A stretch of 53,537 bases of DNA from Bacteriovoracaceae bacterium (GTDB taxonomy: Bacteria; Bdellovibrionota; UBA1018), in assembly GCA_947463705.1 (NCBI GenBank), contig CANHSO010000001.1, positions 1 to 53,537 of the forward strand, given 5' to 3'. The position numbers were made by a program, and so were the translations under genes. Positions 4,140-37,094 of the stretch are shown here, piece by piece (positions within the stretch are counted from its first letter, which is position 1; each line of letters opens with the position of its first letter). A model generated the notes under the pieces. It had not been told where the DNA came from, ran no database searches, and worked only from the letters and a program-made list of their open reading frames with translations.

Positions 4140-6024
4140 TTTGCTCGAAGTCTCCCGAATCAGGCACGCCGGATGTGAGTGTCTCACTCTCATCTGTTTC
4201 TTGAAAGACCTGTTCAAAATCAATGGCCTTTTGTTGAATCATCGCCTCAAGCCGTTTCAAAAATTGAGTCATGAGTCGATTTTTCTCGAGAGCGTTCGTT
4301 CGATCTGTTCTCGAGAGTTCATCATTCACCACCTCGGCGGTCATTTGCGGAGCAAGCCCAAGGATCCGATCTTTGAGTTCAGGGCGCAGCCTGAGGTAGA
4401 CGGTCAGCTCATCCAGATTGGCGCGAGAAATGAACAGAGAAAGGGGCTGGTCCTTCCAAGAATCCAAAAATGAAAGGGAAGGGGCTTTACGCTTAAACTG
4501 CTCCAACGCTTCGCCCGAAAGACCAACAAAGAGAACCACTTCCTCAACGGGAGTGAGGGCCTCACGAAGTCGCTCGAGTCCCATCTCGAGGGAGATGGCG
4601 CCCGAGCCACGCCCTCCTTGCATTTGGCTTTTAATCTTCAGATCCGACGATCGAAGTTCATCCAAGGGCACTTCGCTCATCTGAGCGGCCGAGTGAACTA
4701 GGGCCCGCTTCTGATCTAGAGTGAGCGATTTGAGATACGAGGCTCTTAAGTCTTTCGGCATATAAAGGGAGACGAGAGTCTGCAGTTTTGGATTTTGTTC
4801 GATGAGAACACTTTTCACCATTCTGAGATTCATCGCGCCTAAGTATCCAAATGGGCGGTCGAGCGCAGTTGGGCCTAGGTTAATCAGAGACAAAAGATCC
4901 CAGTAGATCTTTTTGAGGAGGGCCTCTCGCTCCTCCAGTTTCACATCAGGCATTCGGGCAAAAACCTCAGTCAGATCTTGGAGGGCATCAGCAGGGATCG
5001 GGAGTCTCCCCATTTCCTTACCCACAGCCTCAGCATAAAGAGCTACCTTGAGTTTACCTTCTTCACCCGCTGCGTACCACGAGCGTAAGATGGGTTCGCT
5101 CACCTTCCAGTGTTTGACGGCAAGATCGTTAATGCGTCGCTCGAGACTGAGAACTTCAGATTGAAGCTGTAGGCGTTGATCCGACTCAGCGGAGCCTAAC
5201 TTTTCATCTTCCGTTTCAACTCTGTTTTGACTGCCACCCGGATTCAGTCCGCCAGAGGAATCTAAAACTCGGAGTTCCTGCGCCTTTTCAGCCGTACCCG
5301 TTGAGGTTGACCGAGAGGCAAGAAGTTTCCAAATCAAAACTCCTAGAATCATCGCGCAGGCAATCAGAAATTGCCCAATGAGGTCTTGAAAGTCGGCAAT
5401 TCGATCTAGAAGCGTCTTAGGCTCAGCAGGAGGAGCAGGGACTGGAGAGGGGGACTGGATGAATGAAACGATCCCCTCACCCATTTTGCCGACCTCGCTC
5501 GTGAGGCGGCGCTTGAGCCAATCCTCAGTCTTTGCCTTGACGTCAGGGGCAAGGGTACGCTTCAGTCCAACGGCTACTGCAATTTTTTTTAGTCGATAGG
5601 ATTTTAGAAATGCTCGAAATTGATCGGGATCTTTCTGCTCGGCTGCATACCTTTTTATTTCCTGATCCAGGTTGAGATTGCCAATCAAAAGATCCAAAGG
5701 GAGTTGAGGGCTGGGTTTTGGCTCCGACTGAAAGTCAGCAGAAACCTCGCCCAAGTCGAGATGAGCCGATAAAGTGAATGAATCACGATCGATTTGAGTG
5801 GCTAGTTCTTGGGTCAGTCTCCGGACTACCAGATCTTCCAGAATGACCTTTGCTCCAAGACTTTCTGGGGTGAGCAAATTGATAGAGCTCAAATCAGATT
5901 TCTTTACTGAGATGCCGCTCTTTTTTGTCACTGATTTTTTTGGGGCTGCGCTCACAGGTTGAACGACTAATCCGACCGAGAGGGCGAGAAGTATTCCAAA
6001 AATGATCCTATGAATGGAGCTCAA
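4129..6024 (-). CDS. Bitopic membrane protein of unknown function with a coiled coil and C-terminal helical repeats (tentatively FliG/MgtE-N-like)
   Basis: 631-aa ORF with an N-terminal signal/TM segment (IIFGILLALSVGLVVQPVSA) and a second TM segment (FLIACAMILGVLIWKLL). A coiled-coil segment is followed by two repeats of the LDELxxxDLxxxL helical type. It overlaps the upstream gene by 4 nt. Confidence 0.6.
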   Translation of the reverse strand: MSSIHRIIFGILLALSVGLVVQPVSAAPKKSVTKKSGISVKKSDLSSINLLTPESLGAKVILEDLVVRRLTQELATQIDRDSFTLSAHLDLGEVSADFQSEPKPSPQLPLDLLIGNLNLDQEIKRYAAEQKDPDQFRAFLKSYRLKKIAVAVGLKRTLAPDVKAKTEDWLKRRLTSEVGKMGEGIVSFIQSPSPVPAPPAEPKTLLDRIADFQDLIGQFLIACAMILGVLIWKLLASRSTSTGTAEKAQELRVLDSSGGLNPGGSQNRVETEDEKLGSAESDQRLQLQSEVLSLERRINDLAVKHWKVSEPILRSWYAAGEEGKLKVALYAEAVGKEMGRLPIPADALQDLTEVFARMPDVKLEEREALLKKIYWDLLSLINLGPTALDRPFGYLGAMNLRMVKSVLIEQNPKLQTLVSLYMPKDLRASYLKSLTLDQKRALVHSAAQMSEVPLDELRSSDLKIKSQMQGGRGSGAISLEMGLERLREALTPVEEVVLFVGLSGEALEQFKRKAPSLSFLDSWKDQPLSLFISRANLDELTVYLRLRPELKDRILGLAPQMTAEVVNDELSRTDRTNALEKNRLMTQFLKRLEAMIQQKAIDFEQVFQETDESETLTSGVPDSGDFEQNAS

Positions 6025-6638
6025 GATTTGCCACCTTTCACAGATTTTTGTTCCTTGATCTGTTTGATCATTTTGATGGCATCATCTAAATTGGGATCAG
6101 CACCTAGGGCCTTTTCATACCATTTTAAGCTCTCATCGAAATTTTTTTGAAGATAGTAGATCGATGCCCGCATCGAAAGGGCTCTTGGAAAATCTGGAAA
6201 CTCATGAAGGACCTGGTCGAGCTGAATCTGAGCTCGTTCGTGTTCGCCGCTCAGAGCTAATCGTTGCGCAAGGAAAATATGATCGAGAGCTTCCTTCGCT
6301 GTTCGGGCCTCTTTCTCAACTGGAGTCGATTTAAGATTCACTTCAAGCTCAGTCACCATGACGCCAGTCCTTGAAGCAGGCACAAAGATACTCTCCGAAT
6401 GGTAGCCCGATTTTTCAATGGAGAGCGTCAAGTAATCTCCCATTTTGAGGGGCTCACTGAGTTTCTCCTTCACGTCAGACATGGGGACATCCAAGGGTGT
6501 TTTTCCCAACGGCTTTTTTTCCCCACTTTTGAGATTCACGACGTAGACGTCTGCATCCAAAGGATCGCATTTGACTCTAAGAACTGAAGAGCAACCAGAC
6601 AGTGCGACCAGAAAAATTGGAATTAGAAGCTTTTTCAT
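6021..6638 (-). CDS. Lipoprotein with a PEGA-like N-terminal domain and C-terminal TPR repeats
   Basis: 205 aa with a lipobox (FLVALSGC). VKCDPLDADVYVVN..GKTPL resembles a PEGA domain. The C-terminus (SIYYLQKNFDESLKWYEKALGADPN) is a TPR motif. Confidence 0.6.
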   Translation of the reverse strand: MKKLLIPIFLVALSGCSSVLRVKCDPLDADVYVVNLKSGEKKPLGKTPLDVPMSDVKEKLSEPLKMGDYLTLSIEKSGYHSESIFVPASRTGVMVTELEVNLKSTPVEKEARTAKEALDHIFLAQRLALSGEHERAQIQLDQVLHEFPDFPRALSMRASIYYLQKNFDESLKWYEKALGADPNLDDAIKMIKQIKEQKSVKGGKS

Positions 6639-6671
6639 TCTAACTCCCTATCGAAACAAACCTAAAACTTC

Positions 6672-7364
6672 TTAATGAGATTTTTGAGGGTCCTGATTCG
6701 GGACATAATAAAGAGTAAAACCAGCGTAGATCCGATTTGGGTCTCGAATCAGCTCAGGGTTATTATGCCAAATCCCTGACCAGCGAGCTGGGGTGCCATA
6801 GACCCGGCGCGAAATCTTGCTCAGCGTATCCCGGAGGTGAATCAGATAGGGGAGGCCATTTTGACTGACCTCGGCAAACGCTGAAACGGGCAGCTGCAGC
6901 GACACTCCCACGGACAAGCCATGGGCACCCTGAATGACAGAACGATTGAGTTCGTAAACTTCTTTCCACCGCAGAGGATCGGCTAGGGCTTTGAATGCGA
7001 CTTTCATCAAAGTATCACCCCTTTTGACCTCATAACGCATGGAGCCAGACGATGAGGGCTTTCGCGTCGAAGTGACGGGAGTTGGGGCAGAATTCGAACG
7101 TTTGGCCTTTTGACCGGATGCTGGGCTGGTTGGGGGCGGGGCAGTTTTATTCTCCTGGATGAGTTGAGAAACATGACTCACTGCTTCCACTTCTTCGGCC
7201 TCGACCAAACCATCTGATTTGACTTGTGCCATCAGTGTCGAATTATCAGTCTCCGCATCACGACTCGAGGTCGTCGGTCGAATCGATGAACACCCCTGGA
7301 AGGTGCTCAACCAGAGGGTGATAGCCACCCCGCAGATTATCGTACAATACCAATAAGTCCTCAC
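6672..7364 (-). CDS. Lipoprotein with two LysM domains (peptidoglycan binding)
   Basis: 230 aa with a signal/lipobox (LSTFQGC) and a low-complexity linker. Two LysM-like segments are present (YEVKRGDTLMKVAFKAL..W and YLIHLRDTLSKISRRVYG..PNRIYAGFTLYY). Confidence 0.7.
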   Translation of the reverse strand: MRTYWYCTIICGVAITLWLSTFQGCSSIRPTTSSRDAETDNSTLMAQVKSDGLVEAEEVEAVSHVSQLIQENKTAPPPTSPASGQKAKRSNSAPTPVTSTRKPSSSGSMRYEVKRGDTLMKVAFKALADPLRWKEVYELNRSVIQGAHGLSVGVSLQLPVSAFAEVSQNGLPYLIHLRDTLSKISRRVYGTPARWSGIWHNNPELIRDPNRIYAGFTLYYVPNQDPQKSH

Positions 7365-7505
7365 AGTTGCTCCTTAGGTCCTGAAATCCTGCTTAATAGC
7401 TGACAAGACCAATTTGATCAACTTATCGGCAAGTTCGAAACAAAATAAACAAAAATCTGCAATTAATCCGATGACCCAAAATTAAATTAAGTTTATGTTT
7501 AAAAT

Positions 7506-29506: not shown

Positions 29507-29769
29507 GAGAGTTACAGGTCCTCGACTAAGCGGGAGCCGATATGAGCGCTGGGGAAATCGGCGTCACTATCGCTCCGACTGGACGACCGCGCTTCGCAAT
29601 ACCTACTACCGAACGAGGCGCCCCGAGCCAACTTGTCGCAGTGCATGATTCGAATGATTTCAGTAGATTAGGCACGTGTGTGTCGACTTTGACCTGACTA
29701 GTGATCGTAGGACTGATAAAAATTTCGACACTTTAAATTGATTGAATTTAGCTAGCAGTGGAAGACTCC
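29507..29769. repeat. Repeat family copy 1: FGE-domain C-terminal remnant fused to a conserved 135-nt non-coding block
   Basis: Positions 29507-29634 align with 31432-31559 at about 74% identity. On the minus strand this part codes ..GSRLVEDL*. Positions 29635-29769 align with 32023-32157 at 125/135 identity, and the last 52 nt are identical. Confidence 0.85.
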
Positions 29770-29892
29770 ATCCCACCGGTTCCCCATTCTGGATTAGCAC
29801 GCTGGCCACTTTGTTAAGCCCATCAGCCTGAATCGCTCGAAATCGAGCGCCTCAGATTTAGCCACTGCGACACAGCCGAATCTCTTCGTACA

Positions 29893-35761: not shown

Positions 35762-36619
35762 ATGGAACTAGCGACCAGTGAGGTCAAAAGTCACATCCAT
35801 CTGATCAGAGGCTTGCACGTTATGATGGATAGTGATCTTGCAGTCTTGTTTCAGACCAAAACAAAAGCGCTCAATCAAACTGTGAGTCGAAACAATGAGC
35901 GATTTCCAGAAGACTTTTCATTCCCTTTGACTCGTGAAGAATACGAAACCTTAAGGTCACAAATTGTGACCTTAAGAAACTTGGCCCATGGGCAACATCG
36001 AAAGTATCTACCTCGGGTTTTTACTGAACACGCGGTTCTTATATTGTCGAGCATCTTGAACACCGATCGAGCAATTCAAGTAAGTATTGCTTCCGCACGG
36101 GCCTTTACGCAGCTTCGCAGTCAAAAGGACTCGAGTAATCATGTGCACAGCTTGCAAGTGAATGCACTGCTTGGCAAAATTGATAAAATCGATTTAAAGC
36201 TGGAGCATACCATCAGCGAATTGCGGGTCTTGACCAAGCAATCCAAGGAACCGATTAACCAAGCCACTCCTCAGATATCAGAAATTGCTTATTGTAAAGG
36301 TGGCCACTCCGATGAGCACCAGGTTAAAAGGATCTATTCCATCCAATCAGCCGTTGCCAAAAAATTCGGGATAAATGCATCGGACTTGAGCAGTGCAAAG
36401 CGAGAGCAAAGGATTGTTCTTCCGCGGCAAATCACCATCTATCTCATCAGAAAGCATCTAGGAATCAGCTTCAAAGAAATTGGGCAAGTATTTGGAGGTC
36501 GGAATCACGCCACACTCATCCACGCTGTTGAGCGGATCTCCACCAAAATAAAGTTGAATCAGGCAATTGGTTCTACTGTTGTCGAGGTCGAGAGGTCGCT
36601 TGGTTTCGAGTCGAATTAA
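35762..36619 (+). CDS. Fusion protein: N-terminal ORF6N (KilA-N/Bro-related) DNA-binding domain plus C-terminal DnaA domain IV (Bac_DnaA_C) HTH
   Basis: The N-terminus (IHLIRGLHVMMDSDLAVLFQTKTKALNQTVSRNNERFPEDFSFPLT..RKYLPRVFTEHAVLILSSIL) fits the ORF6N pattern. The C-terminus (IQSAVAKKFGINASDLSSAKREQRIVLPRQITIYLIRKHLGISFKEIGQVFGGRNHATLIHAVERI) fits the DnaA domain IV pattern (RQIAMYL..S...IG..FGGRDHTTV.HA..KI). I prefer ATG 35762 with GAAGGAG upstream over the TTG at 35729 in the track. Confidence 0.75.
   Translation: MELATSEVKSHIHLIRGLHVMMDSDLAVLFQTKTKALNQTVSRNNERFPEDFSFPLTREEYETLRSQIVTLRNLAHGQHRKYLPRVFTEHAVLILSSILNTDRAIQVSIASARAFTQLRSQKDSSNHVHSLQVNALLGKIDKIDLKLEHTISELRVLTKQSKEPINQATPQISEIAYCKGGHSDEHQVKRIYSIQSAVAKKFGINASDLSSAKREQRIVLPRQITIYLIRKHLGISFKEIGQVFGGRNHATLIHAVERISTKIKLNQAIGSTVVEVERSLGFESN
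35950..35976. repeat. Intragenic copy of the 27-nt palindrome core CTTAAGGTCACAAATTGTGACCTTAAG
   Basis: It is an exact match to 35669-35695, the core of the 41-nt palindrome. It lies within the ORF6N-domain coding region, in the codons for LRSQIVTLR. Confidence 0.85.
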
Positions 36620-36644: not shown

Positions 36645-37094
36645 TTACTGAATCACAGAATCTAGATCAGAATCTGAGTTAGCATTTTCCTCGAACTGAG
36701 AGAGGTCTGCTCGATCTGCAATGATGATGTGGAAAACATATTCGACCAAAAGATCGTCTAAATCGATGTTGGCCGGAGCATTAAAACTCCGCTTGTAATG
36801 AACAATGATCTCCCAAAGAGGAATGTGGGTGATTTCATCTTCGCCCTCAACGATATCGATCACTTCAAAAAATTCTTGATGATCTGGAATCGTTCCCTGC
36901 AGGAGGACAAACTCTGGATGCTCGTCATTTCGCAGAGAGACAATGTCTTCTTCTCCAATGACAGCAGCTTGTACTGGCACGCTCCCCCAAGCAACACACG
37001 GCATAAAAAACGAAGCCAAACAAAGAATTTTCCAAAAATTTTTCACAGGATGAGGTGTCCTCGGTTGATTATGACTGATGCGCTTCGACGGCAA
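36645..37094 (-). CDS. Small exported protein of unknown function (intact paralog of the 35130..35533 fragment)
   Basis: It has a signal peptide (FWKILCLASFFMPCVAWGSVPVQA) and an acidic C-terminus. The start is uncertain: TTG 37094 in the track, or GTG 37046, which would give MKNFWKIL... Confidence 0.55.
   Translation of the reverse strand: MPSKRISHNQPRTPHPVKNFWKILCLASFFMPCVAWGSVPVQAAVIGEEDIVSLRNDEHPEFVLLQGTIPDHQEFFEVIDIVEGEDEITHIPLWEIIVHYKRSFNAPANIDLDDLLVEYVFHIIIADRADLSQFEENANSDSDLDSVIQ

Follow-up and report, generated by a model that had tools for sequence, protein, structure and literature searches.

In Borrelia, paralogous surface-protein genes are flanked by conserved homology regions, such as the UHS and DHS of the Borrelia hermsii vsp/vlp genes and the upstream homology boxes of the erp and mlp genes. 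Two further kinds of system bear on the locus described here. Promoters of the sigma-54 (RpoN) type carry a -24/-12 element together with upstream activator sequences for enhancer-binding proteins, and Bdellovibrio bacteriovorus encodes an RpoN-like sigma factor, gene bd0843 (PMC3464611). The targets of diversity-generating retroelements (DGRs) include FGE-type C-lectin folds, for example TvpA of Treponema denticola, with remote paralogous targets, and remote targets lying more than 100 kb from the reverse transcriptase (RT) are known (PMC5758913). Our locus, which resembles each of these in part, lies in a stretch of 53,537 nt from a Bacteriovoracaceae bacterium (contig CANHSO010000001.1; hereafter, the window). 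A genome scan identified one related genome, a Bdellovibrionales MAG (GCA_947380295.1), and orthologous and further loci were obtained via homologs of the intact 310-aa FGE-like protein of that MAG.

From left to right, the region consists of a SEC-C/Xre_MbcA gene, a first FGE 3' remnant (unit 1), the first copy of a repeated block, a plus-strand AAA_14/DUF4143 ATPase gene, a second FGE remnant (unit 2) and the second copy of the block. These are followed by an HTH-like gene and a second ATPase gene, also on the plus strand, a third FGE 3' remnant (unit 3), VapBC, an ORF6N-DnaA_C gene, tRNA-Ser(tga) and serS. All of the FGE-like sequences lie on the minus strand, and the blocks therefore stand on their upstream side in the gene sense. 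The first-pass annotation reported that the 135-nt block at 29635-29769 recurs at 32023-32157 with 125 of 135 positions identical, and this was confirmed. The 10 mismatches are confined to the first 83 nt, leaving none in the last 52 nt, a clustering with P = 0.006 under even placement, and the 52-mer has two exact copies in the window, where shuffled sequences would lead one to expect none. A repeat search widens the pair to 29620-29772 and 32008-32160 at 91% identity. The end of identity, described as abrupt, is indeed sharp, but ~20 nt of weaker similarity (GGAAaCGtt..GGAGTC) lie beyond it, and one MAG copy can be aligned to the second block for 16 nt past 32157. The coding remnants next to the two blocks had been given as 91/123 (~74%) identical; an ungapped register (29512-29634 against 31437-31559) yields 87/123 (71%), and the contrast with the block is real. 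No match to the block was returned by BLAST against plasmid and phage collections, nor to a 23-mer from it by a metagenome scan. A plus-strand ORF over the block (..VAVHDSxDF..) is excluded by a stop codon in copy 2 and by differing starts.

We suggest that the block, with high probability, makes up the distal two-thirds of a 5' control module of ~215 nt that belongs to a family of secreted proteins with an FGE-sulfatase domain, and that the copies seen here are relics. The module, in which an upstream palindrome, a -24/-12 element, a 5'UTR hairpin and a Shine-Dalgarno sequence follow one another, was found 5' of every FGE-family member in the related MAG. A profile search with nhmmer recovered 10 module copies. 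Class-A copies of the block stand directly 5' of the intact 378-aa and 365-aa genes (L005 9792-9989 and 12811-13024), other MAG paralogs are preceded by diverged versions of the module at ~60-70% identity, and within L001 the segment 663-865 aligns with the start codon and upstream region of an intact gene at 2338-2541. Block copy 1 is the distal part of a class-A module up to the -24 position (29620-29769, minus strand; nhmmer E = 4.7e-46) and is 90-91% identical to two class-A copies of the MAG. Block copy 2 is the part of a class-A module upstream of the -24 position (32008-32157, minus strand; E = 4.5e-63), and the nhmmer match around it covers 31960-32168. Judged by its sequence, the block is an ordinary paralogous promoter or regulatory region rather than a stand-alone element, and in the window it is a relic beside dead genes. 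Modules also precede two non-FGE secreted proteins at L007 7054-7259 (plus strand) and 1827-1665 (minus strand), both with an identical TTGGCGCGGGGCTTGC; these proteins, one of 510 aa with a weak Lcl_C/DUF1566-like match and one of 282 aa, have similar signal peptides. This sharing of the module with non-FGE proteins suggests either a regulon or the shuffling of modules. The earlier proposal of a functional element was right in kind where it named a promoter or operator, as motif-level conservation extends across diverged paralogs and to positions before unrelated genes, but the argument from differential conservation that led to it fails.

The block is not unusually conserved. Between the two genomes, its class-A copies are 86-91% identical, a level that orthologous intergenic DNA also shows (85-96%) and that most of the coding DNA exceeds (89-98%); the idea that it is conserved beyond the neighboring sequence is thus not borne out. 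The block looks better conserved because the remnant beside it is the hypervariable C-terminal region of the family, which makes that remnant a misleading yardstick: 27 of its 36 mismatches fall within a 78-nt hypervariable region, and outside that region it mismatches at 9 of 45 positions (~80% identical). Even the 52-mer is not invariant, since each copy in the related MAG shows 3 differences as read from the alignment. A conserved non-coding block beside a programmed hypervariable coding remnant is no evidence of a new element, and the case counsels caution in scans made from sequence only.

A sigma-54-like -24/-12 element, TGGCGCGGGGCTTGC, lies at 32004-32018 on the minus strand, next to block copy 2; it was recognized as a match to GG-N10-GC and may be compared with TGGCAC-N5-TTGC. 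Identical or similar elements are present in four MAG paralogs and in the two L007 genes, and TGG-N9-TGC occurs 58-70 nt before the ATG in 6 of the 10 module copies (classes A and B and both from L007), and in classes A and B its distance from the ATG is constant, at -68 to -70. At -12, TTGC is replaced by TTAC in the class-C module, and at -24 a distant homolog (L008, 53% amino-acid identity) has AG, not GG. By itself, the sigma-54 motif is not enriched in the window, where 3 were found against 2.06 expected. About 95 nt upstream of the -24 element, a motif search found an exact palindrome, TGTC-N9-GACA (32102-32118), that may serve as an activator-binding site or operator. Besides the one in block 2, exact copies occur in the two L003 modules and 5' of the distant L008 homolog, with ~0.6 occurrences expected per 53 kb, and block copy 1 carries the palindrome with one mismatch (TGATAAAAATTTCGACA, 29714-29730). 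From this arrangement we infer that the module holds a sigma-54 promoter and, upstream of it, an activator site. Sigma-54 RNA polymerase would bind TTGGCGC-N4-CTTGC ~55 nt upstream of the ATG and an activator would bind the palindrome ~95 nt further upstream, so that the module would act at the DNA level. Like described sigma-54 promoters, the module has GG-N10-GC with flanks near the consensus and, ~95 bp upstream, a 17-bp palindrome, with a long conserved non-coding stretch between the two. Unlike them, it has some members that deviate at the critical GG or GC, and no activator gene is linked to it; neither rpoN nor an activator gene was found in the window.

The block might instead act divergently, as promoter or operator of the plus-strand cargo genes (the PDC-S01 ATPase gene at 29937 and the HTH gene at 32296), retained after the FGE genes died. 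In 3 of 3 class-A cases with a divergent neighbor, the opposite-strand gene does start 125-170 nt beyond the block, and in one MAG copy (L005 12902-12874) a promoter scan picked out, in the plus-strand sense, a sigma-70-like site whose -10 is TG-extended, with the 52-mer starting at that -10. However, the scan did not score the site in any of the three remaining copies, neither window block gave a sigma-70-type hit, and the overall count of 6 compares with a shuffle expectation of 5.2. Several of the modules in L005 and L003 are preceded by co-directional genes, which means that a divergent gene is no constant partner, and the cargo genes differ in every case. We consider a divergent promoter unlikely.

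An RNA encoded by the block, either a small RNA, as the first-pass annotation also proposed, or a cis-acting leader, would fit with a long non-coding stretch that is conserved in several copies, and with the 7-bp inverted repeat GTGTCGA...TCGACAC seen in the class-A copies. Against this, the block folds no better than shuffled sequences on either strand (z from +1.21 to -0.55), RNAalifold gives a consensus of -2.2 kcal/mol in which no helix within the block is supported, and an Rfam search of the block found no relevant match at the gathering score or at permissive E-values. Moreover, the only consensus promoter-like element, the -24/-12, lies downstream of the block, and we regard an RNA of either kind as extremely improbable. 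The inverted repeat was also rejected as a conserved stem or paired site, as it is kept in class A and one L007 copy and lost in classes B and C. The one hairpin that we place in the control module belongs to its 5'UTR; among the window units it is present only in unit 2 (CGCTCC GTTG GGGGCG in the sense orientation, 31967-31982, minus strand, paired by eye). By eye, the hairpin arms at alignment columns ~205-225 vary with module class yet still pair (CGCCUCC/GGGGGCG, GCGC/GCGC and GCUCC/GGAGC).

All three family members in the window are pseudogenes produced by internal deletions. Unit 1 is an FGE-sulfatase-type 3' remnant at 29512-29625 (minus strand), delimited by alignment with intact paralogs and by its codons: a stop at 29512-29514, a conserved 3' tract at 29515-29532, a hypervariable region (VR1) at 29533-29610 and R-G-A-S-F codons at 29611-29625. 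Its deletion junction, at 29620-29631 on the minus strand, joins the TTGG of the -24 element to the V/A-R-G codons that border the hypervariable region on its 5' side. With the deletion, the -12 element and the remainder of the gene were lost, and block 1 adjoins only the last ~115 nt. Unit 2, at 31437-31969 (minus strand), is a pseudogene with a 170-aa ORF that matches Pfam PF03781 (E = 9e-8) over profile positions 80-186 only, with VR2 at 31458-31535. By comparison with L001, L005 and L071, it is missing the start codon, signal peptide, linker and a further ~206 nt, and has kept the promoter and hairpin; upstream of it, stop codons occur in all minus-strand frames. Its 3' flank (31341-31436, minus strand), as read from the sequence and a downstream alignment, consists of CTCTCGGCCCTTTTACCC... 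and then a hairpin TCTCTCTGGC...GCCAGAGAGA. Unit 3 is a 3' remnant at 34106-34223 (minus strand) with a stop, the conserved tract, VR3 at 34127-34204 and R-A-G-S-F codons, joined at ~34220-34226 to its upstream region. The latter is a remnant of a class-C module (34222-34300, minus strand) that shares 91% identity with the sequence preceding the intact 310-aa MAG paralog.

A 3' flank of the same kind was noted after the stop codon in the related genome, where it reads CTCTCGGCCCTCTTACCCTTTTACCC... followed by a CCTGGC...GCCAGG hairpin; three MAG paralogs from two loci have it at 92-97% identity to one another (L005 11138-11270; L003 11057-11190 and 13926-14060; compare 31341-31436 of the window). 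The last 135 coding nt of those three paralogs are only 68-76% identical. In addition, in the metagenomic relative L071, positions 1-110 hold a 5'-truncated FGE gene that adjoins sequence like the region upstream of the window vapB (34436-34464), a junction that would be a further rearrangement variant of the same locus.

The C-terminal region that misled the comparison with the block has the marks of a DGR target. The last ~56 codons of the family run from ..EGVVRGGSF through a variable stretch to ..G.RLVEDL*, with the variation in codons 24-49 (78 nt). Mean entropy at codon positions 1, 2 and 3 is 0.99, 1.03 and 0.77 in these codons, versus 0.23, 0.16 and 0.49 in the 19 preceding ones, and many variable columns are NNY codons, an AAY-to-NNY pattern that is indirect in being read without a template repeat. 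Mismatches between unit 2 and the 368-aa MAG gene number 5/72 before, 29/78 within and 4/51 after the variable stretch, and identity between unit 2 and the metagenomic contig L071 drops from 92% ahead of the stretch to 64% inside it (Fisher P = 1e-9). Unit 2 and all of the MAG paralogs have the PF03781 domain with the variable patch at its C-terminal side, as is found in the fold of DGR targets. GGCKCCCGCC, together with the ~21 nt running through the stop codon and CTCTCGGCCC, is nearly invariant in all copies, synonymous sites included, and lies at the 3' end of the VR, where an IMH-like element would be expected in a DGR target.

We suggest that the hypervariable region would have been diversified by a DGR elsewhere in the genome. 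A link between the family and a DGR is likely, albeit circumstantial, and it may be historical. Like the TvpA-type variable proteins, the family combines an FGE-sulfatase domain with a ~78-nt C-terminal hypervariable stretch right after R-G-G-S-F, varies at codon positions 1 and 2 (NNY), ends in a conserved GC tract plus ~21 nt, and has many paralogous targets scattered in one genome. Unlike the TvpA type, it has neither a template repeat nor an RT in the window or the related loci. The template repeat would be expected to match GGTTCGGGGCGG...CGCCTAGTCGAGGACCTGTAA over ~100-130 nt, with adenines at the variable columns; an nhmmer search with a VR profile of the window and ~130 kb of related loci gave only VR-type copies, none of them adenine-rich, and a C-terminal-peptide profile search for an ORF over the template repeat gave only a known 91-aa fragment. 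No RT was found among window ORFs of at least 120 aa or among the called genes of L003-L008 and L068-L070. A viral-contig scan with the VR 3' end returned no match, nor did a PDB sequence search with an intact paralog. The short remnants were themselves considered as template repeats and rejected, as their variable codons are not adenine-rich. A further difference from the TvpA type is that non-variable positions of the hypervariable region differ among the paralogs, and because of this the paralogs have not all been recently rewritten from one template.

A complete DGR was encountered at 2689-7401 of L030, an unrelated high-GC metagenome contig, in a scan that used the shared VRGGSF edge. Its 937-aa target has an FGE-type VR at 5364-5487, the RT gene is adjacent (5769-6890), the template repeat is at 7278-7401, and 24 of the 25 mismatches are at an A in the template repeat.

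Units 1 and 3 carry modules of different classes, and the endpoints of the deletion coincide in the two: TTGG of the promoter on one side and, on the other, the V-R-G codons bordering the hypervariable region. The best available microhomology was rejected as the cause of the deletions, since the units contain other direct repeats that are as good or better. The fusions of promoter to VR might be aberrant products of DGR retrohoming, in which the 3' end of template-derived cDNA would anneal to a promoter look-alike (TGCGGCAaGTTGGnnCGGGGC versus TGCGGAGGGTGTGGTTCGGGGC) and loop out the gene, although we think this quite improbable. Were it true, the hypermutation system would repeatedly be eliminating the very genes it targets, and at two defined sites. 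3' remnants with other breakpoints are present in the MAG and L071 (e.g., L007 9280).

The orthologous site in the related MAG has flanks 92-94% identical to those of the window and holds intact family genes for proteins of 310, 378 and 365 aa, all three with a signal peptide and a module. A comparison of the 378-aa and 365-aa genes gives 93-100% identity from -210 to +58, ~48% in the linker and 62-90% in the domain, and a comparison of the 378-aa and 368-aa genes gives the opposite pattern. The coding part of unit 2, in turn, is nearest to a paralog with a different upstream class. Because the identity profiles of the paralogs are mosaic in this way, they indicate frequent recombination or gene conversion among the units. 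We suggest that the perfect 52-nt identity would represent a short gene-conversion tract between paralogous modules, rather than selection on relic copies, and that the block copies have probably been homogenized locally by gene conversion. The lack of mismatches in the last 52 nt could also mean constraint, as the tract overlaps the palindrome and the weak, plus-strand extended -10-like site that was scored in one MAG copy.

These patterns are reminiscent of the Borrelia surface-protein families, in which the 5' flank, with the signal peptide, and the 3' flank are likewise more similar among paralogs than is the gene body, and in which mosaic patterns also point to gene conversion. In contrast to Borrelia, no layout of expression site and silent cassettes is evident here, and variation is found in a short C-terminal patch rather than in whole genes.

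Given the sharp junction, one may ask whether the block is a site of recombination, or forms one end of a mobile element or cassette, in which case cargo would insert at the junction. The flanks past GACTCC do differ in every copy, the genes between the FGE units are wholly different in the two genomes despite the nearly identical flanks of the site, and the region adjoins tRNA-Ser. However, the edge at ~-210 is the limit of homology in every pair of paralogs, and turnover of the cargo can be explained by homologous recombination between directly repeated FGE units. The recombination site put forward by the first-pass annotation finds no partner enzyme: between 26.5 and 37.2 kb there is no integrase, transposase or recombinase, and only an IstB-like ATPase. 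The repeat search detected no terminal inverted repeat within the block, and plasmid and phage collections held no match. An integron or attC site is not indicated either, as no integrase was found in the window and no inverted repeat was reported within the block. We consider a recombination site or cassette end very unlikely. A more specific version, in which the block would be the P' arm of an att site and tandem integrative elements would have entered at the FGE 3' end, was rejected, as the homology of the block is to the upstream region of the gene itself and no recombinase was found.

The genes that lie between the FGE relics are candidate anti-phage genes. The two plus-strand AAA_14/DUF4143 ATPases (29937-31244 and 32901-34034) match PADLOC PDC-S01 (E = 9e-129 and 6e-54), the ORF6N-DnaA_C protein (35729-36619, plus strand) matches PDC-S05 (E = 4e-41), and VapBC is at 34490-35091 (plus strand). 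The MAG genes between the paralogs at the orthologous site are entirely unlike these, and a second MAG locus shows the combination of ORF6N-DnaA_C, FGE, DUF4143 ATPase and FGE again. It is probably the directly repeated FGE units that supply the homology for such cargo exchange.

Although of modest value, this context is worth recording. It points to a family of secreted proteins of the C-lectin/FGE type in Bdellovibrionales whose variable tips are DGR-like, and to a shared module of promoter, leader and signal peptide, likely with a sigma-54 promoter, whose presence before unrelated secreted proteins hints at a regulon. Directly repeated units of the family bracket fast-changing candidate defense genes beside tRNA-Ser.

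Several other repeats were observed among the cargo genes. A perfect palindrome with 21-nt arms (TGAAGCATCTTAAGGTCACAA/TTGTGACCTTAAGATGCTTCA) occupies 35661-35703, and a second copy of CTTAAGGTCACAAATTGTGACCTTAAG lies 281 nt downstream (35950-35982), so that the two flank the start of the ORF6N-DnaA_C gene and have the look of operators. Between the HTH-like gene and the second ATPase gene, an inverted repeat at 32837-32898 has 30-nt arms with 87% complementarity and a 2-nt spacer. Two copies of GTA(C/T)(A/T)TTTTCATATGAA, 33 nt apart and each containing the palindrome TTCATATGAA, lie at 29888-29942, immediately 5' of the first ATPase gene. Finally, a ~124-nt segment occurs twice, at 35134-35257 and 36792-36915, with ~89% identity between window and MAG; both copies lie inside small minus-strand ORFs that have the motif ..IPDHQE(L/F)FEVI.. 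in common.
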